From: Escherichia phage vB_EcoM_G5211
Sequence record: MK327947.1
DNA length: 64,000 bases
Reading direction: 5' to 3' (one strand)
The notes under the pieces are model-generated. The model did no database searches. It was not told the origin of the DNA and saw only the letters and a program-made list of their open reading frames with translations. Every line of letters starts with the position of its first letter. The stretch's first letter is position 1. Positions 7,615 through 60,955 of this stretch are shown here, piece by piece. The position numbers and the translations under genes are program-made.

Positions 7615-7652
7615 TTTGTATACTGTATTTATTGCATACGGAGATTTTTACT

Positions 7653-8384
7653 ATGGCTAAAAGATTTCATTATGTTTATGAGATAAAGAATCTTGTAAAC
7701 GGCAAGCTGTATATAGGTAAACATTCTACTAACAATATGCATGATGGATATATGGGGTCTGGTGACCTTCTTCGTGCTGCATTTGAAAAATATGGCATTG
7801 AGAACTTCGAGAAGCGCATATTAAAAATGTTTGATACCGAGCAGGATGCTTACCTATACGAGAAAGAACTTGTCACTGTTGACATTGTAAAAGATCCCAA
7901 TTATTATAATGTAGTTACTGGCGGTCGTTATGACGGAGACCAGGTATACTCAGACTCTGTACGCGCTAAAATGTCTTCTTCTGCCAAAGAGCGCGTAGAA
8001 CGTGATATGAAAACTGGAAAACTAAAAAAAGCAATAGTAGGTATGCGAGAGAGTGTTTCCGGTAGCTCATGGTATAATGACGGTGTTAAATCTATACGAG
8101 TTCGAGATGGAGAAACTCCACCTGACGGATTCGTCAAGGGTAATTTACATGCTGGGTGGGACCATATAGAATGGACGGAGGAACGCAAAGCCGCTAACAG
8201 GGAAATATGTCTAAGACAAGTCCAAAAGGATCGTGAGTCCGGTGCTCTCGCCGAGCGTGTAGCAAGGCTTAACGATTTTCATACTGGCAGTAAGTGGTAT
8301 AACAACGGGGTAGTTAATAAGGTCGTGAAACGCGGTGACACCCCTCCTGATGGTTTTGTTCTTGGAAAACTTGTTAAAAGGTGA
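7653..8384 (+). CDS. segD: GIY-YIG homing endonuclease, Seg-like (segD position)
   Basis: N-terminal HYVYEIKNLVNGKLYIGKHS GIY-YIG motif; GGAG RBS; duplicated GDTPPDGFV segments near the C-terminus. Confidence 0.75.
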   Translation: MAKRFHYVYEIKNLVNGKLYIGKHSTNNMHDGYMGSGDLLRAAFEKYGIENFEKRILKMFDTEQDAYLYEKELVTVDIVKDPNYYNVVTGGRYDGDQVYSDSVRAKMSSSAKERVERDMKTGKLKKAIVGMRESVSGSSWYNDGVKSIRVRDGETPPDGFVKGNLHAGWDHIEWTEERKAANREICLRQVQKDRESGALAERVARLNDFHTGSKWYNNGVVNKVVKRGDTPPDGFVLGKLVKR

Positions 8385-38135: not shown

Positions 38136-38675
38136 CTATTCTCCATCAATTTTGTTTATATTGTAGCCCATGTTGCCTTTTTCTATTTCTCTCAACGCAA
38201 CTGAATTAAACGCTCTTGCCGCATCTTGTTCGCTATCAAATCTCCCTATATGAACACTCTTTCCTTGTATATTAATATGAACTAGCCATCTATTTGTGTA
38301 CTTACACCAACTTACCCCGTTATATTTTGATGATGCACCTTTAAATTTAGTTCTGTTTCTATTATTGACAGAATAATCAGTACCTCGTAAATTTTCTATA
38401 TGATTGTTCAGCTTGTTTCGGTCGATGTGATCTATAACTTTAGGCTTATGCCCGTGAAACATATGATAAATCACATGATGTATTAACTTCTTTCTATTGT
38501 CTACTGTTAGTTGAAGATATCCCCCATTATGTGGACTTCCAACCTCATCACCAACTTTAACTTTATTGCTTGTTGAAACCTTTCTGAAAAGTTTACCATC
38601 TTCGTATTTAAATAGATAATGATACCTTTCGTAAAGTATTCGGTCCTCTTCCGTATAATGTATTACCTCATACAT
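38136..38675 (-). CDS. HNH homing endonuclease with AP2-like DNA-binding domain (mobE-like position between nrdA and nrdB)
   Basis: HNH motif ..IDHIDRNKLNNHIENLR..; AP2-like SSKYNGVSW..KSVHIGRFDSEQDAARAF. Confidence 0.75.
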   Translation of the reverse strand: MYEVIHYTEEDRILYERYHYLFKYEDGKLFRKVSTSNKVKVGDEVGSPHNGGYLQLTVDNRKKLIHHVIYHMFHGHKPKVIDHIDRNKLNNHIENLRGTDYSVNNRNRTKFKGASSKYNGVSWCKYTNRWLVHINIQGKSVHIGRFDSEQDAARAFNSVALREIEKGNMGYNINKIDGE

Positions 38676-44548: not shown

Positions 44549-45517
44549 TTACATCCCTAACAGAGCGTCAAGATCATCCAGATCAGAAGCGGAGGAAGTA
44601 CCGCCACCCAGATCCAGCGATGCCATCAGGTCATCAGCGGAAGAATCTAACGCCGTGCTAGCTGCGTTAATACCAACTACAGTGCTAGCTGCGTTAATAC
44701 CAGAATCGAATGCATTCATCTGTGCGTCAAAATCGTCAAGCTGGCTGTTAATCGCTGCCGCAGCACTGGAAGCCGCAGCACCAGCTACCATAGAAACGCC
44801 CATAGTTTTCTTAAATTTGGTTTCCAGTTCATCGAACGGTTTAAACTGGCTAGGCGCTACAATCTCACTCAGGTCAACCATGTTTTCCATCAGATATTTC
44901 TGATATGCTTCGTCTTCAATTTTCGGAAGCTGTGATTGCTGCATGAAACGAGAATCATCATAGTTCTGGTGTTTATCAACCTTCTTAGCTTTCAGGAGGA
45001 AGTTAGCACCGGAGAACACACAAGTTACATCTACCGGAACTTCGCCCATGTCGGTATTCACGTTCACCATTGCAACGATCTTATCATAAATTTTCTGACC
45101 GAAGCGGAATTTGAATACCTTACCTTCATTTTCTGGTGATTGAGGATCTTTCAGTACCAGAATATTTGCGTAGTAAGACGCTTTACGCTTAATCAGTTGC
45201 CATTCGGTTTTATCGGTATTGTACAGGTCTTTTTCGTTAATATATTTGCACACAGGGCAAGAATCAAAATCACCGTGGGTGCTGGAGCAGTTTTCCCAAT
45301 ACCATTTGCCATTAACTTTGAAGGAATGGTTTACCAGTTTCACAATCGGCAGACCGTCTTCTGTCTTAGACGGCAGGAAGCGAATCAGGGCTTCACCGTT
45401 ACCTGCTGCATCAGTCTTAATCTTCCACTCTTTTGGATCTTCTTTGGAGAAACCGTTGCCACCTTTCAGTGCGGCCAGTTGAGCTTGCAGTTTGGAAGAA
45501 TCTTGGCGTTTAAACAT
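44549..45517 (-). CDS. 32: single-stranded DNA-binding protein gp32
   Basis: From the internal ATG (MFKRQ..); ..[27 protein letters not shown].. parallels T4 gp32; acidic C-terminus. Confidence 0.9.
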
Positions 45518-45553
45518 ATTCACTATTCCTTCTTTTGATTAATTTACTAGACT

Positions 45554-45581
45554 ATTATACAGATTTAAGTTTACTTGTCAA
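45554..45581 (-). promoter_or_regulatory. sigma70-type promoter TTGACA-16-TATAAT upstream of gene 32
   Basis: Perfect hexamers on the - strand; -35 overlaps the gene 59 stop; AU-rich leader precedes the gp32 start. Confidence 0.55.
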
Positions 45582-46258
45582 CTATTTGTTTCGGATTTTA
45601 ATTGAGATATTTCTTTACACTCTTTAACTACTTTAACAAATAATGCTCTTGCTTTTGCGGCGTCAATAACAAGTAGTTTCTTGTACGCCTTCATTTTAAC
45701 ACTATAAGTTTGCCAAATCAAGTCTTTGGCTACCTTGTCGTGTTCGTCGATTATATTTAGAAAGCTATCTAACAACATAAACGACTCAAACGATATAATC
45801 CGATTTTGCAGTAGTTTAAAGATACCGCTAGTTTCGGTTGCGGGATTGTATGTAATTAGCTCTTTAAGAGTAACCCCGCGTTTCTCGGAGAAGTATACCA
45901 GACTTTTAATGTCATCGTCAAATCTTGTTGCTGCATCGGTTATCTTTCCTATGTATTCCATATAAAAGCCGTATGCGTCAACATCAGTGATTTCACCTAC
46001 CCATGCATCGGTATTAGCTACCAGATTGCTTAGGAATAGGAAGTATAGTTCTCTTAGATTGTACTTTTCCGCTAATTTTGCGAAATAATACTTATCTCTG
46101 CGTTTATTGAATGCGGCATCAGACAACCGCATCCTCCAATTGTATTTTACGCAATCATAACGCCCGTTCATATGAGCTTTCATCATGCAATATAACATAT
46201 ACACAGATTTAGCATTAATTCGCATATCTGGATCTGGAGGAAGACGGTTTCTGATCAT
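45578..46258 (-). CDS. 59: helicase loader gp59
   Basis: 226 aa; ..GKSVYMLYCMMKAHMNGRYD.. parallels the T4 gp59 N-terminus. Confidence 0.85.
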   Translation of the reverse strand: MIRNRLPPDPDMRINAKSVYMLYCMMKAHMNGRYDCVKYNWRMRLSDAAFNKRRDKYYFAKLAEKYNLRELYFLFLSNLVANTDAWVGEITDVDAYGFYMEYIGKITDAATRFDDDIKSLVYFSEKRGVTLKELITYNPATETSGIFKLLQNRIISFESFMLLDSFLNIIDEHDKVAKDLIWQTYSVKMKAYKKLLVIDAAKARALFVKVVKECKEISQLKSETNS

Positions 46259-46267
46259 ACATACCCC

Positions 46268-46537
46268 TTAAATATCGAGAGTGTTGGTCGGTTCGTCGAT
46301 CACTCCCTTCCTGAGCGTTCTATTTACTATACATTCTTGTGTGATCTTGTCAATAATGGACACCGGAATATACTTCTGATAGTGACCATATTCGATAGAG
46401 TTTTCCTCTACAAACTGCGTTGTCGCTTCAAGATAAGTCAATCCCTCTTCAACAACCAGTTTTTCGATTGCAAGACCGTTTGCTGTTTTGTTCGCGGCTT
46501 TTACCGCATGTTCATTAAGCATTGAACACCCGATCAT
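46268..46537 (-). CDS. 33: late transcription co-activator gp33
   Basis: ..GLTYLEATTQFVEENSI.. parallels T4 gp33; the true start may be the ATG at 46522. Confidence 0.7.
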   Translation of the reverse strand: MIGCSMLNEHAVKAANKTANGLAIEKLVVEEGLTYLEATTQFVEENSIEYGHYQKYIPVSIIDKITQECIVNRTLRKGVIDEPTNTLDI

Positions 46538-46790
46538 AGAGTTCTACCGCTTCATCGCGTTCTGCTTCGAAGGTTTCGCGCTGTTGCTGGTGATACAGTT
46601 TAAACAGAATGCCCCACATTTTACCATCTACGCCTAATTCTTCTTTAGCACGCTGTTTGATCTCTTTGATCTTATCGCCATATGCTTCTTGAATGGTTTT
46701 CTGATCGCTGGCTTCTTTAATCAGTTGTGCCAGGGTATTTCCGTGTACATTTTCGTCAAATACTACTTTTTCTTTTTTCTGTTCAGTCAT
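46515..46790 (-). CDS. dsbA: small basic protein at the dsbA position
   Basis: 91 aa between gene 33 and rnh; called by position. Confidence 0.55.
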   Translation of the reverse strand: MTEQKKEKVVFDENVHGNTLAQLIKEASDQKTIQEAYGDKIKEIKQRAKEELGVDGKMWGILFKLYHQQQRETFEAERDEAVELYDRVFNA

Positions 46791-46794
46791 AATA

Positions 46795-47391
46795 TTAACC
46801 CTCTTTCGTCATTAATTGAAAACCACGTTCAGCTTTTGAAATTTCGCTAGGACTTAAATCGTCACCCACATATTCTAGCATCATTTCTCGGATAATGTCA
46901 AGTGCTTTTTCATCACCTGATTTTAACTCGAACTCAAGTTCATAGTGAGCATCTCCCATGACTTTGCCGACTTTGCAATAATAGAAAGTGTCTTTGCACA
47001 TTTCCACTATAGCACCCTCAAGGTCAAGTGTCAATGACTTGCGGTATGTCATTACTTGCAATAAAGGAACGATAAGGTCGGAGTTTACGCCTAGACTATC
47101 AACATAGTGATAGAAATCATCCATTGTTGAAAAAGTAATTTCTTCTCGGTTGAATAGTCCAGATTCACCATCACCTATTTTGACCATGATCAATGATCTA
47201 TTAACGTCAAGTCGAGCATAAATTCCTTTTCGACGCAGTGCATGATCTTCGGTATCATAATAAAATTCGTGTTTTAGAATGTTATCTCGGTCTACGAGAT
47301 TGTACCCGTCATACATTGCTACCCACAAATCACAGATGGTTTCGACGCCAATTTGTGAGTGTGCATAGTATTTTAATTCAAGTTCTTTCAT
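46795..47391 (-). CDS. CYTH-like (triphosphate tunnel metalloenzyme) domain protein
   Basis: N-terminal ELELK (ExExK) and later ELEFELK acidic motifs typical of CYTH/CyaB-ThTPase domains. Confidence 0.5.
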   Translation of the reverse strand: MKELELKYYAHSQIGVETICDLWVAMYDGYNLVDRDNILKHEFYYDTEDHALRRKGIYARLDVNRSLIMVKIGDGESGLFNREEITFSTMDDFYHYVDSLGVNSDLIVPLLQVMTYRKSLTLDLEGAIVEMCKDTFYYCKVGKVMGDAHYELEFELKSGDEKALDIIREMMLEYVGDDLSPSEISKAERGFQLMTKEG

Positions 47392-47401
47392 ATGTCAACC
47401 C

Positions 47402-48349
47402 TTAGAACTCACCAATTTTCTGCAACATTTTAACTAACGCATTTGTTACAAAATAGTTATAAATTTTACCGCGTGGTGCTGGTTTAGATTTTTCCCATGA
47501 CGCCAGAATCTGATTCTGAATATTGTCTGGGATGTAATCGAAATCAATAAGTTCGCGGTTTTCGTCAAAACGTCGTGCTTCTTCCTCTGTCATCAAAGAC
47601 TTTGGATCTTCGGCATCGAAAATTTGCTCTAACCATTTGGTTGCAATTGGTTTAGCTCGTTCCCCTTCCAGTCGAGAGATAATGAAATCACTACGACACT
47701 TGACAGAAGCCACACCGTCTTTTGCGTCACCCTTAACACATTTTACCATAAGGTCTTTGTAAGGGCTACCATATTTGCATTTCTTCCATGCTTTCTGTAC
47801 TGGCGCCCACTGTTTCACATTTTTGTATTTGTGTAACTGTGTGTAGTCACCATCGCCGGAGTTGATTAGCACCTGACGACCTTCTACAGAAAACTTTTTA
47901 GTTAACACAGCGATTATATCATCTGCCTCAACTTTGTCAACCTTAATAACGTGATAAGGCATGTTCTCTTTAAACTCTTCGGTGATCTTATTGATCGCAG
48001 CAAAGATCATCTCCCAATCACGCGGATCTGCGTCTCGTTTTTCCTTACGGTTGCGTTTATAGTAAGGGGCGATATCACGTCGCCAGTAACCTTTGCTTGA
48101 ATCGAATGCAAGTACCGTTATTGGGTATTGCTCTTTGAATTTTGTCATATTATAACGCATGGTGTCAAGAATAAGATGACGGATCATGCCTTCATTAATA
48201 GGATCTTCCGGTTTAAATGTATGAGAGATAGTAGCAATCATAAGCTGTGACATATCAATCAAATGCACACCTTCCGGTAGTTTATCTTCTGGATCATCGA
48301 AGAAATCATTAAGTGTAGCGGTAGTTTTTGTAAACGGGTTATACGTCAT
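47402..48349 (-). CDS. rnh: RNase H / 5'-3' flap exonuclease
   Basis: 315 aa with acidic metal-binding clusters (..VLAFDSS.., ..EADDII.., ..SGDGDY..), as in T4 RNase H. Confidence 0.85.
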   Translation of the reverse strand: MTYNPFTKTTATLNDFFDDPEDKLPEGVHLIDMSQLMIATISHTFKPEDPINEGMIRHLILDTMRYNMTKFKEQYPITVLAFDSSKGYWRRDIAPYYKRNRKEKRDADPRDWEMIFAAINKITEEFKENMPYHVIKVDKVEADDIIAVLTKKFSVEGRQVLINSGDGDYTQLHKYKNVKQWAPVQKAWKKCKYGSPYKDLMVKCVKGDAKDGVASVKCRSDFIISRLEGERAKPIATKWLEQIFDAEDPKSLMTEEEARRFDENRELIDFDYIPDNIQNQILASWEKSKPAPRGKIYNYFVTNALVKMLQKIGEF

Positions 48350-48351
48350 AA

Positions 48352-48537
48352 TTAAGTTCTCTCCACTCTCACAACAACATATTCGCCAAACGAGTTAGAT
48401 ACTTCACGATCATACCCGTATTTCTCCATAACTCGCAGAATTGCATTGTTTAATTCGGCACGGAAATAATTGTAATCCTTATCAGGGATTCTGTCAACTA
48501 CCCATTTTGCACCATCTGACAAATCAAATTTAACCAT
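48352..48537 (-). CDS. small hypothetical protein (61 aa)
   Basis: ATG-initiated ORF directly downstream of rnh. Confidence 0.5.
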   Translation of the reverse strand: MVKFDLSDGAKWVVDRIPDKDYNYFRAELNNAILRVMEKYGYDREVSNSFGEYVVVRVERT

Positions 48538-48575
48538 AATATATCATCCTCTTTTGTTTCTATCAAGCCTTATTT

Positions 48576-48583
48576 TATAAATA
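48576..48583 (+). promoter_or_regulatory. late promoter TATAAATA upstream of gene 34
   Basis: Exact octamer ~30 nt upstream of the gene 34 ATG. Confidence 0.55.
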
Positions 48584-48611
48584 TGAACATACTATAAAAG
48601 GAGACCCAATA

Positions 48612-51600
48612 ATGGCAGATTTTTCTCAACATTTCAAGGCCACATTTGGCTTTGACGCTGGTAATGAAAAGGTCGTCAATGTAGCATTGGCTGATAAGAA
48701 TGTCAACACCGATGCGGTCAACGTTGAATTTTTCAATTACCATAATGGTATTACTCAGTATGACGCAACTCGCGGTTATGATCAATACGGCACTACAATC
48801 TATCAAAACCGTCCGTATTATGCAAAAGAAGATATCACAAAACCAGCAGGTGATTTTGACCCGACTAAATGGCAAGCACTGCGCACGGACCCACGTTGGG
48901 ATTATGTTGCAGCAACTTCCGGCGATACTCCTTTAAAGTCCGGTGATTATATCGCAGCGGACTGTCAGTTTGCAAACTTGACATTCTCAATGCCTACAAA
49001 TCCGGTAGAGGGCGACAATATAACAGTAAAAGATATCGGTGGCAAGTGCGGTGTTAATGAGTTATCGTTCCTTTCGGTTGGTCATGAGTTCTATCATAAT
49101 GGTGTGGTAAACAACCGCAAATGGTACTGTACTACCCCTTATGCAATGAACTACTTCATTTTTGTTCGCAATCGCTGGCACGTTTACCAGACGGGAACGG
49201 AGCCACGCGGGGTATATGCACAACCATCTATCGACCCGATCCAGATGCAAAACGGTGATCAGGTATTCCGCCGTAGTTCTTTGGGTAACATTGTTTTGAT
49301 GCTTCCTAAGTTTGCTAATAACGGTGATATGATCCAGACTACCGATCTTGACGGATTGACTGCAACCAACCATGTTACGGTAAAAGTGCATGAAGGTGCG
49401 CAAGAACAATCGATCGGTACTTTCGGGGTAAAAGAAATTGTTGGTAAGCGTAGCGGTCATGGTGTATTCATATTTGACAAACCGGAAAACTTATGGCGTT
49501 TGTGGGATGGTGATCAGTCTGTTCGCTTGAATCCTATCATTAGTGATACTCGCTTGTCCCCCAATAGCTATGTTGCAGTATTTGGTGATCGTGATGTTAC
49601 CTTGACTTTACCGACCAGCGTCGAGCATGGTGATCGTATCCAAATTTCTATGCAGTATATGCACGGAAACCAGAATTGCCGAATCGTTACCGCAGAAGAG
49701 GATACAAAAATCCTTATGCAGAAAAACATGGTTCAGTTTCCTAAGCGTAGCGAGTACCCGTTCAATGGGACCGATACATGGAAGGAAGTGTCTGAATTGT
49801 CTTTCAACGCTGCAAATGATTATGTACCTTATCTGGAGTTCTCTTATTCAGAAGGTGATGATGGTAAGAAACACTGGTTGGTAGCACATGCTCACCCGAT
49901 CGTAGAACGAGTAGATCCGACTCGTAAAGAGCGTGTTGGTGTTATTGCGCTTGCAACACAGGACGAAACCAACAAAAACCATGAAGATAATCCTAGCGAC
50001 GAAGTTGCAGTAACGCCAAAAATGCTTGCCAATAAGACTGCAAACGAAACGCGTCGAGGTATTGCTAGAATCGCTACTCAAGAAGAAACGCACCAACATA
50101 CAGGGGCAAATTTTCTTGATGATGTGATCGTAACTCCTAAAAAACTAAATGCGTGTGTTGCTTCCGAAGAACATCGAGGCGTGTTGGAGATTGCAACTCA
50201 GGAAGAAACCAACGTAGGTTTAGACGATACACGCGCAATCACCCCTAAGAAATTAGAGGAACGTCGCGCGTCGGAAGACCTTGCTGGTATCGCTGAAATT
50301 GTTCAGATGGGTGGTAGTGCTGCCGCTCGACGTGGCGAAGCTGGTACAGGGGTCTATAACATCAATGACCATGCTAAAATCGTTACACCACAAAACATCA
50401 ACGAAGTTAAGGCGACCGAAACTTCCCGTGGTGTTGGTTATCTGGCAACTGACGCGGAAGTGCAAGGGGCTACAGAAGCAACCCCGCAAGATGCAATGCT
50501 GATCACTACTCGCACGTTAACCAAGCGTACTGCTACCGAATCGCGTACTGGTATCGCTGAAATTGCTACGCAGGAAGAAACTAACTTAGGCCAGAGTGAT
50601 AACCATATCATCACGCCTAAAAAGCTGCATACTCGCCGCGCAACTGAAACTTTACATGGTTTAGCAGAAATTGCAACTCAGCCGGAATTTGACGCAGGTC
50701 GTGACGATGCTCGCATTTCTACTCCATTGAAGATTAAAACCTTCTTTGAGAAAGCACAGCGTTTGAGAGTAGATCCGAATCAGGGGCTTAACCTTACGGG
50801 TGATTTATGGCAAGGTATCACGATCAGCGGTCTTGATGCAACCGAAGATACAAAAGGTGTCGCGAAAGTTGCTACTAGTCAGCTTACCGATGTGGGAGAA
50901 GATGACGCCACGATCATTACTCCTAAAAAGCTGCAAGGCAAAAAGGCCACCGAAGATAAAGAAGGTATTATCAGAGTTGGTACTCAAGCCGAAACCGTCG
51001 CTGGTGCACTGGACAATGTAGCAATTTCTCCGAAGAATTTCAAATATGTTGTCCAGACAGAGGATACATGGAAAGCAACCGAAGCGCGTCGTGGATTCTT
51101 GAAAGTTGCTACTCAGGAAAACTGTTTTGTTGGCGATAATCTGCAAGGTTCTACTCAAGAGCTTGATGAATATCAGCATGATGGGATTGCGGTAACTCCG
51201 AAAGGATTAAACTACGCACTTGCTAATTTCTTACCTAAAATGGCAACCGCTCAGAATAGTTTGAAATTGGGTAACGTAGAGGCCGCTAAATGGGCGCGCA
51301 GAGACATTGACCAGACCATTGAGAGCAATTACACGTTTAATAAAAACGTTAACGTGAAGGGCGATTTAGAGTGCTTAAAATCCGGTTCCTTTGAAACTCT
51401 GTTTGTGACTAAGAACTCGACTGACGATCCGAGTAATGGTCATCTGGTATTGGGTGAGCGTGGAGTTGACGGTCACACCGGAATTACTCTGCATGGCACA
51501 ACCTTGTCAGAAGGTATGGAAAACTCATGGTCTATTATCGTTGGTGGCACTGGAACGGCGCAAGCAGTTAATAGTGATGCTATCGCTTTCTGTAAGATTG

Positions 51601-55287: not shown

Positions 55288-58068
55288 ATGGCAGATTTAC
55301 AGAGAATCCAATTTAAAAGAACAAGTACGGCAGGTCGCAAGCCGGATGCGAATATTCTAACTCCGGGTGAACTTGCTATTAACCTAGCGGATCGAGAACT
55401 ATATACAAAAGATGACAGCAATAATGTAATTACTTTGGGACACTTTCGCGGTGAGTTGCCATCTGATGCAAATTTAGATAATTATGGACCTACTGGTAAA
55501 TTTACTGGCGTTTGGTCTAAATCAACTTCAACAAATGCGCAGCCAGCAAATAAATTCCCAGAAGAGAATGCTGTAGGTGTATTAGAAGTATTTGTGGCTG
55601 GTCAATTTGCTGGCACTCAGCGTTATACTGTTCGGTCTGGTAACGTTTATATCCGTTCTTTGTCTGCGAAATGGAATGGCGTAGATGGTCCATGGGGTCC
55701 GTGGCGCAATATTCAAACTGGCACACGTCCACTATCAACTACACTAGACTTGAATACTTTAGGTGATGCTTCTCATTTTGGGTTATGGCGAAATAGTTCA
55801 AGTTCCATTGCATCATTTTCTCGAAATTACCCAGAAGAAGGTGGTCTCGCGCAAGGTCTTTTAGAAATTTATGAAGGTGGTAACTATTCTCGCACGCAAC
55901 GTTATACTACCCGAATGGGTGTTGTATATGTTCGTTGTCTTGCTGGTGCATGGGATCCAGAAGCTCCGAATTGGGGACCGTGGCAACAAGTAGGTATGGT
56001 TACTCCCAACACATTCTATGACGGGGATCTTAATAATTTTCGTTCTCCTGGCTTATATAATATTTTAGGCACTGATGCCGTTATTAACCGTCCAGTTGCA
56101 GAAGGTGTTCCGGTTGAGATGACCGGATTGCTTGAGGTTAAACAGCGTGCTTCCGGTGGCGCTATTTTCCAACGTTTCACTACCGCAGGAACGGGATCTA
56201 CTACCCGTGGTCGTGTTTTTGAACGTGCAATGACAAATAATATCTGGGGAAATTGGCATGAAGTATATACATCTTATTCTCTGCCAATTACTTTGGGTAT
56301 GGGTGGTATTAAAACTCAATTAGCGGAGCTAGATTGGCAAACATTTGATTTTGTTCCTGGTAGTATGTTTAGCGTTCCTTTGAACAAAATAAAGAACATG
56401 CCAGCAAATATGGATTGGGGTGCGATTGACGGAAACTTGGTTATGTTTTCTGTCGGTCCTAGCGAACACACTAGCACAGGGCGTACTGTTCAGGTTTGGC
56501 GTGGTACTGTATCCCAGACAAACTACCGTTATTTTGTCGTTCGTGTGTTCGGTAATTCTGGAAATAGAACTTGTACAGTTCGCCGTGTTGTTCTTGAAGA
56601 CGGATCACATACTTGGACTGCTAAACAAGATTTTAATGGTGCTGTCAACTTTGGTGGTTCGACAACTTTTAAGTCCACTACAACTTTTAACACAGAAGTT
56701 AAATTCCGTTCATCCAATGCATTTAAAATGTATGGCGGTAATTTTGGCACAATTTTCCGTAATGATGGTGAAAGTCTTTATATTCTTTCCACCGACGAAA
56801 ATGATCAAGATGGAAACTTTAATACAAATAGACCTTTCCGCTATCAATTAAAAACTGGCGATGTTACTTTGGGTGGCACTAGCGGTGCTAACGCTTTAGT
56901 ATTAAAAGGCGGTTCTCTTGCTGCTACCTTTAGCGGTGATGTTAATTTAAGTAAAGGTACGCTGACGTTTGAAGCGGGTGGTAAGCAATCACGCGATTAT
57001 TTCCGGTTTAATCATTGGGGTGATAGCAATAACGCTCGTGATAACATTATTCAGTTAGAAGATAGTAAAGGCGCTCATTTTTCCACTGAACGTACTTTAG
57101 CGACTGGTGCAATTAAAACTAAATTCTTTGGTGAAGTTGAATCAACTGGTCGATTGACTATTAAACGTCCGGGTGGTGCTATTGTATTATCGACTACAGC
57201 CAGCAACGCTTTGCATATTCGCGGTGACGTAGACGGGAATGGTAACTGGTATATTGGTAAAGGTGGTGCTGATAATTCGCTAGCATTTTATAGCTATGCT
57301 ACTCAGGCGGCAGTACATATAACAAACAATGGTGAGATTGCGTTAAACCCGCAAAATACCTTAATGGTTAACGTTAACCGCGATCGTATGTATATCAATG
57401 GTGCAAGTTGGGTTGCCAGACAACCAGGTGATTGGGGCAACCAATGGCGAGTAGAAGCTCCATTATTCGTTGATCATGGTTATGTTGGTCAAGATAGTTA
57501 TTATCCTATTCTTAAAGCAAGAAGCGTTATAACCAATCAAGGATATAGCACCGCTGTTGACTTTGGTATGCGTCGTATTCCATCACAGTGGGGGCAAGCA
57601 ATCATTCGTGTCGGATCCACGGAGGCTTCTCCTGATGCTGGACACCCACAAGCTGTGTTTGAATTCCATCATGATGGGTTCTTTTATACACCAGGAAATG
57701 GTAGCTTTAGCGATGTGTATATTCGTTCTGACTCCCGTCTTAAGATTAATAAAGAAGAGTTAGAAAACGGAGCACTTGAAAAAGTATGCCGTCTGAAAGT
57801 TTATACTTACGATAAAGTTAAGTCTATTAAAGATCGTAGTGTGATTAAACGTGAAGCTGGTATTATTGCTCAGGATCTTGAAAAAGAATTGCCGGAAGCT
57901 GTATCTAAAGTTGAAGTTGATGGATCTGATGTTCTGACAATTTCTAACTCGGCAGTGAATGCTCTTTTAATTAAGGCTATTCAGGAAATGAGTGAAGAAA
58001 TTAAAGAATTGAAAACTCCTTTCTTTACTAAAATTGCTCGCAAAATTAGTAAATATTTTAAATTCTAA
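55288..58068 (+). CDS. 37: long tail fibre distal subunit gp37 with C-terminal intramolecular-chaperone (S74-like) domain
   Basis: N-terminus MADLQRIQFKRTSTAGRKPD.. parallels T4/T2 gp37; C-terminal SDSRLKINKEELENGALEKV..GIIAQDLEKELPEAV matches the auto-cleaving chaperone signature. Confidence 0.85.
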   Translation: MADLQRIQFKRTSTAGRKPDANILTPGELAINLADRELYTKDDSNNVITLGHFRGELPSDANLDNYGPTGKFTGVWSKSTSTNAQPANKFPEENAVGVLEVFVAGQFAGTQRYTVRSGNVYIRSLSAKWNGVDGPWGPWRNIQTGTRPLSTTLDLNTLGDASHFGLWRNSSSSIASFSRNYPEEGGLAQGLLEIYEGGNYSRTQRYTTRMGVVYVRCLAGAWDPEAPNWGPWQQVGMVTPNTFYDGDLNNFRSPGLYNILGTDAVINRPVAEGVPVEMTGLLEVKQRASGGAIFQRFTTAGTGSTTRGRVFERAMTNNIWGNWHEVYTSYSLPITLGMGGIKTQLAELDWQTFDFVPGSMFSVPLNKIKNMPANMDWGAIDGNLVMFSVGPSEHTSTGRTVQVWRGTVSQTNYRYFVVRVFGNSGNRTCTVRRVVLEDGSHTWTAKQDFNGAVNFGGSTTFKSTTTFNTEVKFRSSNAFKMYGGNFGTIFRNDGESLYILSTDENDQDGNFNTNRPFRYQLKTGDVTLGGTSGANALVLKGGSLAATFSGDVNLSKGTLTFEAGGKQSRDYFRFNHWGDSNNARDNIIQLEDSKGAHFSTERTLATGAIKTKFFGEVESTGRLTIKRPGGAIVLSTTASNALHIRGDVDGNGNWYIGKGGADNSLAFYSYATQAAVHITNNGEIALNPQNTLMVNVNRDRMYINGASWVARQPGDWGNQWRVEAPLFVDHGYVGQDSYYPILKARSVITNQGYSTAVDFGMRRIPSQWGQAIIRVGSTEASPDAGHPQAVFEFHHDGFFYTPGNGSFSDVYIRSDSRLKINKEELENGALEKVCRLKVYTYDKVKSIKDRSVIKREAGIIAQDLEKELPEAVSKVEVDGSDVLTISNSAVNALLIKAIQEMSEEIKELKTPFFTKIARKISKYFKF

Positions 58069-58104
58069 CAACAAGGGGGCGTTGCCCCCTTTGGAGTATA
58101 AATT

Positions 58105-58218
58105 ATGGCAGTAGTTGGTGTTCCTGGTTGGATTGGAAGTTCAGCCGCAAATGAAACAGGACAACGATGGATGAGTCAAGCGGCTGGTCAATTAAGATTG
58201 GTGTTCCTTGCTGGATGA
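58105..58218 (+). pseudogene. 38: gp38 adhesin N-terminal segment (37 codons) in a different frame from the gp38 body
   Basis: GGAG RBS then [32 protein letters not shown] (conserved gp38 N-terminus), running into a TGA at 58216; the body continues in the -1 frame. Confidence 0.6.
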
Positions 58219-58904
58219 GTCAATTTGCAGGTCGCTCGCGAGAAATTATTCATACTGTAGGAGCAAACCACAATTTTAATGGTCAGTGGTTCCGTGATAG
58301 ATGCTTTGAAGCTGGCGGTGCACCTATTGTATTCAATATTGTTGGTGATATCGTTTCTTATTCTAAAGATGTACCGCTTTTCTTTATGTATGGTGACACT
58401 CCTAACGAATACGTTGTCCTTAATATTCATGGTGGTGTCCATATGTGGGGTCGAGGTGGTAATGGTGGATACACTCACTCAGGTGGAGATGGTAACGGTA
58501 CACAAGGCGGTCATGTTATTCAAAATGATATCGGTGGACGGCTTCGTATTTGGAACTACGGTGTTATAGCTGCTGGCGGTGGTGGCGGTGGTGGTATTGC
58601 ATATCGTCCACACTCAGGGGCAAACTGGCAAGATATCGGTGGCGGTGGCGGTCGACCTTTCGGTGGTGCTGGCGGTGGCGGTTATTCCGGTGGTGCTGCT
58701 TCTTATGAAGGTCCGGGTGGTGGTTACAACTATGGTAACGCACACTCCGGCGCGGGTGGTAATGCTGGCGCTGCTGGTCAGAATGCATGGTCTGATGGCG
58801 GTAAAGTTCTTAAAGTTGGTGTTGGTGGTGCTTCTGGTCATGCCGTGTTTGGATCTTCTCCAACTTGGGGCGCTGTAGGGACAATTTATGGACCTTACAT
58901 TTAA
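58167..58904 (+). CDS. 38: gp38 receptor-recognising adhesin, body with glycine-rich motifs (T2-type)
   Basis: ..[41 protein letters not shown].. plus poly-Gly motifs; no RBS before this in-frame ATG. Confidence 0.8.
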
Positions 58905-58963
58905 CCGTTAAAAAAGAATTAAGGAAAAATCCCAGGGAAGGGAACTACTAAGGAGAAACGGCT

Positions 58964-59203
58964 ATGGTCTATAATATCGTCATTGGTGCTTTGTCTAATT
59001 TCGGAATGAAATTATTGTCAAAGTTAATTAGTGAAAAGATGCTCACTAAAATTTTCTTCTATTGCGCTCGTCGTCTTGCGGCTTATACCAATACGCCAAT
59101 TGATGATCGTTTTGTGGAAGAACTTTATAAGGAGTTTAATAAAGATCAGTCAGAAGATAGTAACGAGCAAGATAAACCTAGTGATAGTCAACTACCTAAA
59201 TAA
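58964..59203 (+). CDS. small protein with hydrophobic N-terminus (79 aa) between genes 38 and t
   Basis: AAGGAGAA RBS; N-terminal MVYNIVIGALSNFGMKLLSKLI; acidic C-terminus. Confidence 0.55.
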   Translation: MVYNIVIGALSNFGMKLLSKLISEKMLTKIFFYCARRLAAYTNTPIDDRFVEELYKEFNKDQSEDSNEQDKPSDSQLPK

Positions 59204-59236
59204 GAGTACACTGTCATAGTTATCTTAGGGCATTAT

Positions 59237-59893
59237 ATGCAAGTTTCTGAAAAAGGGAAAGACTTTGCTATCTCAAATGTCCTGCGCGCTATTTTCACAA
59301 CTAAAAGCACGGAGTTGCTCGTACTTCGTGTTTTTGCTGCCGTCGTGTTGTCCATATTAGCATTTGTCGTTTATAGTAAAAACGAGTTATTTGCGCTTTA
59401 TAAAGAGACTCGTTATGAGACTTATGCTCACATTCTCCAGGTAGAGAAAGACCGCAATTTTGATAATGCAGCACAGGAGCAGTTACAGATAGTTCATGTG
59501 TCGGCTGATGCCGATTTTTCTGCTGTTTTTAGTTTTCGTCCGAAAAACCTAAACTATTTTGTTGATTTGGTGGCATATGAAGGAAAGTTACCGCATACAA
59601 TCGATGAAAAAAATTTAGGCGGATTCCCTATCAATAAAACGAGTGAAGAATATCGTAGGCATCTTTTAGGTAAATCATATTTTACCGATAAAGATTTCCA
59701 GTATATTCCATCAAGAGAAAAGAAATTAGAGAATATCGATATAGGGTTTATGTATTCTTGCCCTATATTCAATCTCGATAATGTCTATTCTGGTAGTATC
59801 GCCATTGCATGGAAGAATAAACCGGATATTGACATTGAGAATTTAGATACTCTTTGCAATCAATCTGCCAGAATCCTCGGAAGGATTAGATAA
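59237..59893 (+). CDS. t: holin T
   Basis: 218 aa; ..LEQLQIVHVSADADFSAVFSFRPKNLNYFVDLVAYEGKLP.. parallels T4 holin; N-terminal TM; C-terminal ..ARILGR.. Confidence 0.9.
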   Translation: MQVSEKGKDFAISNVLRAIFTTKSTELLVLRVFAAVVLSILAFVVYSKNELFALYKETRYETYAHILQVEKDRNFDNAAQEQLQIVHVSADADFSAVFSFRPKNLNYFVDLVAYEGKLPHTIDEKNLGGFPINKTSEEYRRHLLGKSYFTDKDFQYIPSREKKLENIDIGFMYSCPIFNLDNVYSGSIAIAWKNKPDIDIENLDTLCNQSARILGRIR

Positions 59894-59898
59894 CTTAA

Positions 59899-59930
59899 AG
59901 GGGAAGCCTTTCGGCCTCCCCTTCTTTTTA
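59899..59930. terminator. bidirectional terminator between convergent genes
   Basis: GGGGAAGCC-tttc-GGCCTCCCC with T-rich runs on both sides. Confidence 0.55.
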
Positions 59931-60176
59931 TTGGCGCATAGAAGCCCCTGAATCACATTTTGACGCTGTATGATGAAAACAGGTAGCGTACCAGTCATCG
60001 GCTTGTTTGTCTTCGTCAGAAAACGCGTAATTGCGTTGTATGCCGTTTTCTACTTTGACCAGTGCAATAGCTGTTTCTGGAAGATCAATCAATCGGACAA
60101 AATCACCATCTTCCCACTCTACACGAGCAATATCATAGCCCATCTCAACGTATACAATCGCTTGTTCTAATTTCAT
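59928..60176 (-). CDS. hypothetical protein (82 aa)
   Basis: ORF convergent with t; no motif recognised. Confidence 0.5.
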   Translation of the reverse strand: MKLEQAIVYVEMGYDIARVEWEDGDFVRLIDLPETAIALVKVENGIQRNYAFSDEDKQADDWYATCFHHTASKCDSGASMRQ

Positions 60177-60496
60177 TCTGGAAACTTCCCGTAAACATTC
60201 TCTGCCAGCTTACGTGCATCTTTTACAATATCTTTCATGTAATGACTATAATTTTTAGCTAGATCAATGATACAATCAACAAAGAAGTAATAGCGTCGCA
60301 GTGCTACCAGCCCAACATCTTCAAGATGACCATTTTCTCCAATCGCTGAAATGTGTTTAAATTCCTTTCGGATCGCGTCCATCGCTACATTAACTTCTTT
60401 TATAATATCTTTAGTATTATATGCACCTCGACTAATCAAAATTTTGGTTAGGTCTTCTGCTTTTTCGTGAAAGTTGTCAATTTCAAACTCGATCAT
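60173..60496 (-). CDS. hypothetical protein (~107 aa), paralog of 60611..60943
   Basis: From the internal ATG with GAGAGGTGA RBS; C-terminus ..ENVYGKFPE resembles ..ENIFGKF of the neighbour. Confidence 0.55.
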   Translation of the reverse strand: MIEFEIDNFHEKAEDLTKILISRGAYNTKDIIKEVNVAMDAIRKEFKHISAIGENGHLEDVGLVALRRYYFFVDCIIDLAKNYSHYMKDIVKDARKLAENVYGKFPE

Positions 60497-60610
60497 AATC
60501 ACCTCTCATAATTTCACGCTGTTGTTTCAACATTTTTTCGTGGTTTGCTAATTCTATACCTTGTAATAGCATAACCAGTGCAATTTTCAATGATTCATCA
60601 TCTTTCATAA

Positions 60611-60943
60611 TCAAAATTTACCGAAAATATTCTCTGTCATAATTCTTGCTTCGTCGATTATTTTCGTCATGTTCATGGTGTAGTTATGATCATTTAGTGC
60701 CTTAATGACAACGAGCAAGGAATCTAAAAACACTCGATACCGTGTATATTCTACGCTATTTGTGAATACCGATGTTTTCTCTACTTTATCGATCAGATAG
60801 CCTAAAACCGATAGCGCCTCGTTGACTTCCCTTGTTACTTTATCGGCGCTAAACAGCACCGGATAAAGACGCGGTGTGATTAACCGCGCTGCCTCTTTCA
60901 ATTCGGTCGCTTTCCATGATTCATATTTGTCATAGTTAAACAT
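60611..60943 (-). CDS. hypothetical protein (110 aa), paralog of 60173..60496
   Basis: Shared length and C-terminal motif. Confidence 0.55.
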   Translation of the reverse strand: MFNYDKYESWKATELKEAARLITPRLYPVLFSADKVTREVNEALSVLGYLIDKVEKTSVFTNSVEYTRYRVFLDSLLVVIKALNDHNYTMNMTKIIDEARIMTENIFGKF

Positions 60944-60955
60944 TGTATAATCTCC

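Follow-up and report, generated by a model that had tools for sequence, protein, structure and literature searches.

A CYTH-type triphosphate tunnel protein, probably a hydrolase, with an exchangeable core between rnh and dsbA of an RB49-like phage

The locus

We analysed a stretch of 64,000 nucleotides of phage DNA (hereafter the window), which comes from a Krischvirus (RB49-like) phage and not from T4, and in which a gene of 198 codons lies on the minus strand between rnh and dsbA. The product of this gene belongs to the CYTH family of triphosphate tunnel metalloenzymes (TTMs), and by analogy with its characterised relatives it is probably a stand-alone, catalytically competent enzyme that acts as a two-metal phosphohydrolase and not as a cyclase. 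The central part of the gene differs deeply between phages that are otherwise nearly identical, and repeated exchange of ancient alleles is the simplest reading of this pattern. The gene and its two neighbours are arranged as follows.

47402..48349, minus strand: rnh (RNase H / 5'-3' exonuclease), upstream neighbour in the same direction, from the RB49 annotation
46795..47391, minus strand: coding sequence of the CYTH/TTM protein, 597 nt, ATG start, 198 residues; ortholog of RB49p245 / RB49ORF244c; PHROG 14893
46515..46790, minus strand: dsbA (double-stranded DNA-binding late-transcription factor), downstream neighbour, from the RB49 annotation

An earlier note on this DNA had described an open reading frame (ORF) of 198 residues with the motifs ELELK and ELEFELK, and had regarded it as inserted between dsbA and rnh relative to T4. 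Both observations hold: the ORF is exact at 46795..47391, its motifs lie at residues 3-7 and 151-157, and in phage T4 only 8 nt, and no gene, separate dsbA from rnh. The protein, as translated in the ORF list, reads MKELELKYYA...HYELEFELKSGD...SKAERGFQLMTKEG. Orthologs of the neighbours match the Pfam families 5_3_exonuc_N and RNaseH_C (rnh) and Phage_DsbA (dsbA). The 4.5 kb around the CYTH gene are 97-98% identical in DNA to Krischvirus phages RB49, JSE and GEC-3S, and the CYTH protein has a 100% identical counterpart in Escherichia phage vB_EcoM_G5211.

The domain had been recognised before. The RefSeq record of RB49 describes RB49p245 as a hypothetical protein 'similar to P45267, P30871, HI1598, ygiF', and Nolan et al. 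(2006) listed RB49ORF244c with a CYTH domain hit at E=0.0026 (PMC1524935); the CYTH call has been public in that record and in the literature since 2003-2006, that is, for some 20 years. Altogether 58 phage records carry the gene, and among the rows listed the product is mostly a 'hypothetical protein', with two entries as 'adenylate cyclase' and one as 'inorganic triphosphatase'. What we add here is the motif argument for a hydrolase with an atypical beta3 strand, the likely mis-annotation as a cyclase in some records, and the structure of an allelic cassette.

Membership in the CYTH superfamily

The Pfam CYTH profile (PF01928) matches the protein at 26.9 bits, above its gathering score of 23.2 (E=5e-6), and PHROG 14893 ('unknown function') matches it over its full length; an NCBIfam scan of the protein gave no match. 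Searched as a single sequence against the PDB sequences it found E. coli YgiF marginally (E=0.076), and the family profile was needed for significance: the profile of the phage family had YgiF as its sole match among all PDB sequences (E=1.2e-8, residues 2-193). A profile search of 1.84 billion representative proteins returned 228 relatives at E<=1e-3, only 6 of them at E<=1e-10, and the relatives that were sampled are bona fide CYTH or CYTH-CHAD proteins with 70-97 Pfam bits. When the phage family was aligned by hhalign with 46 YgiF-type CYTH proteins, themselves verified with Pfam, the probability was 99.9% and the E-value 1.2e-33.

The AlphaFold2 model (predicted local distance difference test, pLDDT, 91.6; predicted template-modelling score 0.85) has eight long strands and flanking helices, predicted to form the eight-stranded antiparallel beta-barrel, or tunnel, of the superfamily. 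Its best PDB match in Foldseek was again YgiF (5a60; E=1.6e-12, template-modelling score 0.79, 23% identity), and the remaining significant PDB matches were all TTM-fold proteins. A second allele, 59% identical and devoid of a Pfam hit, had the same predicted topology (pLDDT 91.4). The earlier note had left the choice between a CYTH-type triphosphatase and a class IV cyclase, and had named a CYTH profile search as the check and the lack of a profile match or of an eight-strand tunnel as grounds for rejection. Pfam, hhalign and the predicted fold all speak for a CYTH/TTM protein; the cyclase half of that choice is not supported by the motif signatures described below.

Conserved residues of the tunnel

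Conservation was assessed in 13 phage homologs and in a MAFFT alignment of 150 CYTH domains, in which 143 distant relatives were counted. The segments that carry the characteristic residues are these.

47371..47385, minus strand: ExExK hallmark E3-L-E5-L-K7, codons 3-7, strand beta1 (sequence and alignments)
47206..47220, minus strand: Y58-A-R60-L-D62, codons 58-62, strand beta3, aligned with the family pattern [A/S/G]-x-R-x-R
47041..47181, minus strand: codons 71-117, with tunnel residues K71, R82, E84 and R117 (alignments)
46921..46941, minus strand: E151-L-E153-F-E155-L-K157, codons 151-157, strand beta8 (alignments to 5a60)
46822..46839, minus strand: S-K-A-E-R-G, codons 185-190, start of the C-terminal 'plug' helix, the SKxxRG motif of YgiF-type CYTH proteins

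Residues E3, E5, K7, R60, K71, R82, E84, R117, E153, E155 and K186 do not vary within the phage clade and are found in nearly all of the 143 relatives. The ExExK motif, unchanged in the 13 phage homologs, is E/E/K in 142 of the 143; K71, R82, E84 and R117 recur in 140-142 of them, and E153 and E155 in all 143. In the plug motif the counts are 143 for K186, 129 for S185, 125 for R189 and 134 for G190, and AlphaFold2 predicts the plug helix at 186-195. By homology, E3/E5/K7 would match E4/E6/K8 of YgiF, the metal-site-2 glutamates and the phosphate-binding lysine, and E153 and E155 would be the metal-1 and metal-2 ligands that correspond to YgiF E160 and E162. The residue roles and the two-metal mechanism come from crystal structures and mutants of YgiF and AtTTM3 (PMC4641920).

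Along every strand, conserved and variable positions alternate with the period predicted for side chains that face inward. The invariant positions are E3/E5/K7/Y9, K40/Y44/D46, Y58/R60/D62, K71/G73 and G78/F80/R82/E84 from beta1 to the middle of the protein, and V113/T115/R117/T121/D123, E130/C132/D134/F136/Y138 and E151/E153/E155/K157 on the later strands; conservation is lowest in the outer helices a1 (13-29) and a2 (90-99). The tunnel is under strong purifying selection. At several positions of tunnel parity the phage clade has fixed a residue other than the family consensus: K40 against L, Y58 against A/S/G, D62 against R, M69 against T, T115 against F, F136 against G, Y138 against I/V and H149 against I. 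Two pairs of these changes, L40/R62 to K40/D62 and F115/G136 to T115/F136, look like swaps between neighbouring strands, which could preserve the overall chemistry of the tunnel.

This pattern bears on the proposal that the protein has no catalytic activity and serves as a sponge or regulator, sequestering a polyphosphate or triphosphate ligand or a protein partner. Non-enzymatic TTM folds do exist, in Mediator Med18/Med20 and Vtc2, which were among the fold matches, and the outer surface of the phage protein is highly variable, as in binders of a variable partner. However, the metal glutamates and the predicted catalytic arginine are invariant across alleles that are 38-59% identical, which mere binding would not require, and we hold a non-catalytic role to be most improbable.

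Hydrolase or cyclase

The choice between the two kinds of CYTH enzyme can be read from motif rules. Vogt et al. (2021) extended the hallmark of class IV cyclases to HFxxxxExExK, assigned ExE on beta8 to hydrolases and ExA to cyclases, and described beta3 as small-x-R-x-R in ordinary TTMs, as W/Y-x-R-x-R in thiamine triphosphatases and as a strand without the first arginine in cyclases (PMC8233210). In the phage protein HF is absent four residues before ExExK, as just M1-K2 precede E3. The beta8 pair is ExE, in which E155 is present and invariant and the second glutamate is not replaced by alanine. Because the HF extension is missing and ExE is intact, the overall motif signature appears to be of the hydrolase type and not that of a class IV cyclase.

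Some GenBank records do say 'adenylate cyclase', in keeping with a class IV (CyaB-type) adenylate or nucleotidyl cyclase that would make a cyclic nucleotide in the infected cell; against this stand the lack of HF before ExExK and the presence of ExE in place of ExA, which together make such an activity very unlikely. The product name 'adenylate cyclase' in some Krischvirus records is probably wrong, and is probably a legacy of the name of the family (cf. PMC3440374). A defensible product name would be 'Triphosphate tunnel metalloenzyme / CYTH phosphohydrolase'.

The reading of beta3 depends on the alignment register. In the MAFFT alignment the relatives have A, S or G at position 58, R at position 60 in 141/143 and R at position 62 in 140/143, and both MAFFT and hhalign align Y58-A-R60-L-D62 with the [A/S/G]-x-R-x-R of the family. 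The AlphaFold2 hairpin, with strands 57-62 and 67-76, places K71 opposite Y58; in YgiF, whose sequence has an N-G turn at residues 61-62, K69 would likewise lie opposite G54. With this register R60 is predicted to be the catalytic arginine (YgiF R56), D62 to replace the second arginine, and Y58 to sit in the aromatic slot of the thiamine triphosphatases. Changing R56 of YgiF to alanine strongly reduced its activity, and mutation of AtTTM3 R54, the counterpart of the second beta3 arginine, had little effect (PMC4641920). Aligned by HMMER to YgiF alone, the protein falls into another, ungapped register, which sets Y58 on R56 and places a two-residue deletion elsewhere; judged from the alignments and the DSSP strings, this register is rather unlikely.

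The beta3 rules for the other subfamilies can be applied in either register. The position of the first arginine, which in cyclases becomes a small neutral residue, is held by R60 in the register of MAFFT, hhalign and the AlphaFold2 hairpin, and by a tyrosine in that of HMMER. As to the W/Y-x-R-x-R of thiamine triphosphatases, the aromatic residue and the first arginine are present, the last arginine is an aspartate, and the divergent homologs P0044 and P0045 have V or I for the tyrosine.

An allelic core in a constant frame

Comparison with related phages divides the gene into two parts.

46948..47343, minus strand: variable core cassette, codons ~17-148 (helix a1 to strand b7), delimited by identity and by nonsynonymous (dN) and synonymous (dS) divergence
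46795..46947, minus strand: constant 3' part, codons 149-198 (beta8, a3, plug helix), evolving together with the genome backbone

Sliding identity between the window and phage Skers is 95-100% in rnh, dsbA, 33 and 59, drops to 48-63% across 47341..46925, and is back to 97-100% for the last ~130 nt of the CYTH gene. We compared dN and dS between the window and the loci of Skers and of the metagenomic homolog P0042. For rnh, dN was 0.011-0.012 and dS 0.18-0.28; for dsbA the values were 0-0.017 and 0.04-0.13. Codons 149-198 of the CYTH gene behaved in the same way (dN 0.008-0.017, dS 0.07-0.20, or 0.07-0.25 when set against the divergent Krischvirus alleles), whereas in codons 17-148 dN reached 0.55-0.58 with dS saturated, a divergence similar to that from the ortholog of a phage of a different genus (dN 0.59). 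The allele of the Makalu/Phi1 type is intermediate, with a core dN of 0.13, a dS of 0.45 and a ratio of 0.29; the corresponding ratios are 0.05 (rnh) and 0.11 (dsbA). The core falls into at least four classes (the RB49/window, Makalu/Phi1, Skers and P0042 types), and the tunnel-facing residues are invariant across them.

When the full 64 kb were compared with Skers by blastn, collinear blocks of 94-98% identity were found, with 87% within the tail-fibre genes. The breaks consisted of indels of homing-endonuclease-like ORFs, the tail-fibre genes, and one segment of equal length that could not be aligned, 46944-47362, which is the CYTH core; in this comparison it is the only island of allelic replacement outside the tail-fibre genes. 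A core of foreign composition was ruled out by its G+C content (39.1% against 40.4% for the window), as was an embedded promoter or ribosome-binding site that would keep the 3' 150 nt conserved, since dS there equals the backbone value; for the same reason the conserved 3' part simply lies outside the recombined cassette. The simplest reading is that ancient alleles have been exchanged repeatedly by homologous recombination, with crossovers in the conserved coding segments for beta1 and for beta8 to the C-terminus.

The other breaks with Skers are as follows. The distal tail-fibre genes at 55415-60953 are the other strongly diverged region, where 55415-57694 could not be aligned, 57694-60298 is 87% identical and 60298-60953 differs in length; this is the usual host-range mosaicism. 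Two window ORFs are missing from Skers, although the sequence around both is collinear: one at 7632-8384 (plus strand, 250 residues), just upstream of a uvsW-like helicase gene, begins with a GIY-YIG-like N-terminus (YVYEIKNL..GKLYIGKHS), and another at 38136-38675 (minus strand, 179 residues), beside nrdB, has HNH- and AP2-like motifs. Read by eye from their translations, both look like free-standing homing endonucleases. Skers, in turn, has an HNH gene between 59 and 32 and a GIY-YIG nuclease gene beside gene 32 that the window lacks.

Distribution of the gene

All 58 phage records with a match are Krischvirus-like, and a scan of IMG/VR gave three loci, from Krischvirus only. Cellular relatives are at most 29% identical, and genome and metagenome scans returned only generic CYTH proteins (24-33% identity), with no informative non-syntenic context. 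A megablast of 5,426 complete E. coli genomes found no copy of the gene, and this result, together with the 23% identity to YgiF, rules out a recent capture of host ygiF.

The divergent homologs occupy the same place. Among the metagenomic homologs, P0042 (57-58% identity) and P0043 (46-48% identity) are both flanked by rnh and dsbA; the rnh of the phage with P0043 is 81% identical. P0044 (38% identity) immediately precedes dsbA and 33, and its contig, 1.25 kb long, does not reach a further gene upstream. The order rnh-CYTH-dsbA is thus kept down to 46% identity and CYTH-dsbA-33 at 38%, from which we conclude that the gene is an old resident of this lineage that evolves much faster than its neighbours. 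As these three homologs share the same dsbA-33 neighbourhood, it gives no extra clue to function.

Expression signals and neighbouring features

The spacers on both sides of the CYTH gene are short, 10 nt to rnh and 4 nt to dsbA, and each comes with a Shine-Dalgarno-like site that overlaps the end of the upstream gene.

47392..47404, minus strand: rnh stop codon and 10-nt spacer, TAAGGGTTGACAT, ahead of the CYTH ATG (sequence read)
47399-47403, minus strand: AAGGG, Shine-Dalgarno-like site of the CYTH gene, overlapping the rnh stop (sequence read)
47393-47398, minus strand: TTGACA in the rnh/CYTH spacer, which is also the -35 hexamer of a promoter-like site (promoter scan)
46799-46803, minus strand: GAGGG, dsbA ribosome-binding site, within the final codons of the CYTH gene (sequence read)
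46901..46872, minus strand: sigma70-like site TTGACA-18-TAGAAT, in the constant 3' part of the CYTH gene (promoter scan)

Given the spacing and orientation of rnh-CYTH-dsbA-33-59, the CYTH gene is most likely co-transcribed and translationally coupled within this unit. The presumed coupling to rnh in a replication cluster, found in every relative whose upstream flank was recovered, would suit an RNA or primer 5'-triphosphatase that converts 5'-ppp to 5'-pp. Its targets might be host or phage transcripts, which would be primed for decay by RppH and RNase E, or the pppAC... Okazaki primers handled by the rnh product. The RNA triphosphatase Cet1 and those of mimivirus and vaccinia are indeed TTMs and were among the fold matches. 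However, the closest similarity of the phage protein in structure and sequence is not to Cet1, Pct1 or the viral capping triphosphatases, and this function appears distinctly unlikely.

A promoter scan of 45400-48700 gave 21 sigma70-like matches, against 10.1 +/- 3.3 in shuffled sequences; nearly all are on the coding minus strand, seven have a perfect TTGACA -35, and three fall within the CYTH gene or at its start. Examples on the minus strand are 47940..47913, 45581..45554, 48497..48469, 47398..47370, 47034..47006, 46901..46872 and 46353..46326; of these, the one at 45581 alone corresponds to an early promoter annotated in RB49. Counted over the entire 64 kb, TTGACA is found 45 times on the minus and 24 times on the plus strand, where ~16 per strand are expected, with peaks at 24-28 kb and 44-48 kb. 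This excess is probably the early-promoter signature of the phage.

Two further features were seen near the unit. Between rnh and gene 34, which is transcribed divergently, is a conserved ORF of 61 residues (48352-48537, minus strand) that RB49, Skers and Makalu list as hypothetical and that has no annotated counterpart at this place in T4. Gene 32 (44549-45523, minus strand) encodes a gp32 homolog of 324 residues, against 301 in T4 (a 906-nt coding sequence), and the C-terminal tail of the window homolog is Ala/Ser-rich and partly repeated.

Function and substrate

Homology to YgiF and AtTTM3 suggests how the phage enzyme would work as a phosphohydrolase. A triphosphate moiety with Mg2+ or Mn2+ would be bound in the barrel, where K7, R60, K71, R82, R117 and K186/R189 would hold the phosphates. 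E153 would complete metal site 1, and E3, E5 and E155 would form metal site 2, which would position the attacking water at the terminal phosphate. R60 would stabilise the leaving group, and the products would be orthophosphate and a diphosphate remainder.

YgiF is a specific Mg-dependent tripolyphosphatase that does not hydrolyse ATP, GTP, ITP, pyrophosphate or long polyphosphate and is slow on thiamine triphosphate, and its authors doubted that hydrolysis of inorganic tripolyphosphate (PPPi) is its real job (PMC3440374). If the phage protein is a hydrolase, PPPi or short polyphosphate may be taken as its default substrate by analogy with YgiF, an assignment that we make tentatively. A nucleotide-like or other organic triphosphate is only slightly less likely, and the 5'-triphosphate ends of RNA are an improbable third choice. 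We rate a small organic triphosphate about as likely as PPPi because of the clade-specific residues Y58, D62, K40, H149, F136 and Y138; the extra aromatic and histidine residues, which lie toward the plug-helix end, seem compatible with an organic moiety on the substrate.

Several points weigh against a catalytically competent tripolyphosphatase-like enzyme. The Pfam CYTH score is marginal, allele P0036 and the 38% identical relative P0044 have no CYTH match at E<=0.01, and the score of P0045 is under the cut-off. In either register only one of the two beta3 arginines is retained, unlike in ~98% of relatives, and in the HMMER register the missing arginine would be the catalytic one, which would weaken the tripolyphosphatase reading and resemble the cyclases. 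Moreover, pyrophosphatase accounts for most of the tripolyphosphatase activity in E. coli extracts (PMC3440374). We found no stated benefit to a phage of PPPi hydrolysis, and our literature searches returned no paper testing any phage CYTH/TTM enzyme. The co-transcription and the timing of the gene are inferred from its spacing alone.

An organic substrate would also be expected of a nucleotide-pool enzyme, namely a triphosphatase for (d)NTPs or modified nucleotides that would clear away an unwanted nucleotide, or else an alarmone or immune signal that bears a triphosphate. Iyer et al. have speculated that jumbo phages use their CYTH and MazG triphosphatases to purge unmodified nucleotides (PMC7824862), some TTMs hydrolyse NTPs (SaTTM with ATP, for example), and some Krischvirus phages have cytosine modifications from an undescribed pathway (PMC13390438). 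Furthermore, the tunnel has Y9, Y58, F136, Y138 and H149 where relatives carry small or aliphatic residues, with Y58 in the slot where thiamine triphosphatase stacks the organic moiety, and the allelic-cassette pattern fits a conflict-related gene. Nevertheless we consider this function unlikely. YgiF, the closest characterised enzyme, is inactive on ATP, GTP and ITP (PMC3440374); removal of the gamma-phosphate leaves a nucleoside diphosphate that is readily re-phosphorylated, which makes a poor purge; the protein had no match to PADLOC defence-system models at E<=10; and the gene is found alike in phage SAP, which has the modification, and in TB34, which does not, with proteins that are each 84.9% identical to that of the window.

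According to a paper from 2026, the cytosines of SAP are fully modified and those of TB34 not at all in genomes that are 99.96% identical, and Krischvirus phages are without the T4-type hydroxymethylase and glucosyltransferase genes (PMC13390438). By itself the gene does not account for this difference in cytosine modification, as modified and unmodified sister phages both carry it. Destruction of the p3diT signal of the Clover system was dropped as a candidate too: p3diT is inhibitory, and the phage would gain nothing.

Returning to the phosphohydrolase, the divergent surface around a fixed tunnel suggests, as a hypothesis, that the surface is seen by, or bound to, a variable host partner. 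Taken further, the protein could be a factor in the conflict between phage and host, in which the tunnel hydrolase destroys a triphosphate-bearing host molecule and the surface is recognised by a host inhibitor or defence sensor. The molecule destroyed may be an immune or stress signal, an RNA 5' end or PPPi, and the outer surface may be under balancing or diversifying selection. Such a conflict would account for at least four ancient core alleles recombining among near-identical genomes while the tunnel residues stay fixed; we nonetheless regard it as speculative and rather improbable. That YgiF-type enzymes can influence phage infection is weakly suggested by Pseudomonas aeruginosa, where a ygiF mutant was among the mutants resistant to four phages, an effect through lipopolysaccharide or Psl being only speculated (PMC12406683). 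If the conflict were real, this would be the first triphosphate tunnel metalloenzyme to be assigned a role in phage counter-defence or host takeover.

The phage protein is a divergent member of a well-known enzyme family whose domain identity was already published, with a suggestive hint of phage-host conflict. A small, readily purified phage enzyme with an altered tunnel could help to define the in vivo substrates of CYTH enzymes, and allelic replacement of this kind is usually tied to host-interaction genes. Its interest would rise if the enzyme acted on a host signal or on RNA ends, or if the allele class tracked host defence repertoires.

Comparison with known systems

The closest characterised relative is E. 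coli YgiF (5a60/5a61), with which the phage protein shares the SKxxRG plug-helix motif of the YgiF type. The phage protein is the tunnel domain alone: it ends at residue 198 and has no Pfam match to the polyphosphate-binding CHAD domain, which is present in YgiF and in the relative P0048. Its beta3 strand reads Y-x-R-x-D in place of G-x-R-x-R, its beta3-beta4 hairpin is two residues shorter, and K40, H149, F136 and Y138 are specific to the phage clade. In its length, single domain and motif set it resembles the bacterial stand-alone YgiF-type CYTH proteins of ~200 residues (P0046 and P0054 among them), which are 22-29% identical and, unlike the phage protein, keep both beta3 arginines (140-141/143).

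Likeness to the mammalian 25-kDa thiamine triphosphatase (3bhd, 5a64; 14-18% identity) is confined to one motif position, as the W/YxRxR of the phage protein is incomplete, its last arginine being an aspartate; this is not evidence of specificity for thiamine triphosphate. The class IV adenylate cyclases (CyaB; Yersinia pestis AC-IV, 2fjt and 3n0y) share the superfamily, the size and ExExK. Other viral proteins of this kind, namely Aeh1ORF004c, the CYTH proteins of Aeromonas phages 65.2 and D3, and the capping triphosphatases of giant viruses, are distant (Foldseek E 1e-8 or weaker, identity at most 16%). These other phage and giant-virus CYTH/TTM proteins are encoded at other genome positions and look like independent acquisitions; large viruses repeatedly carry enzymes of the TTM fold.

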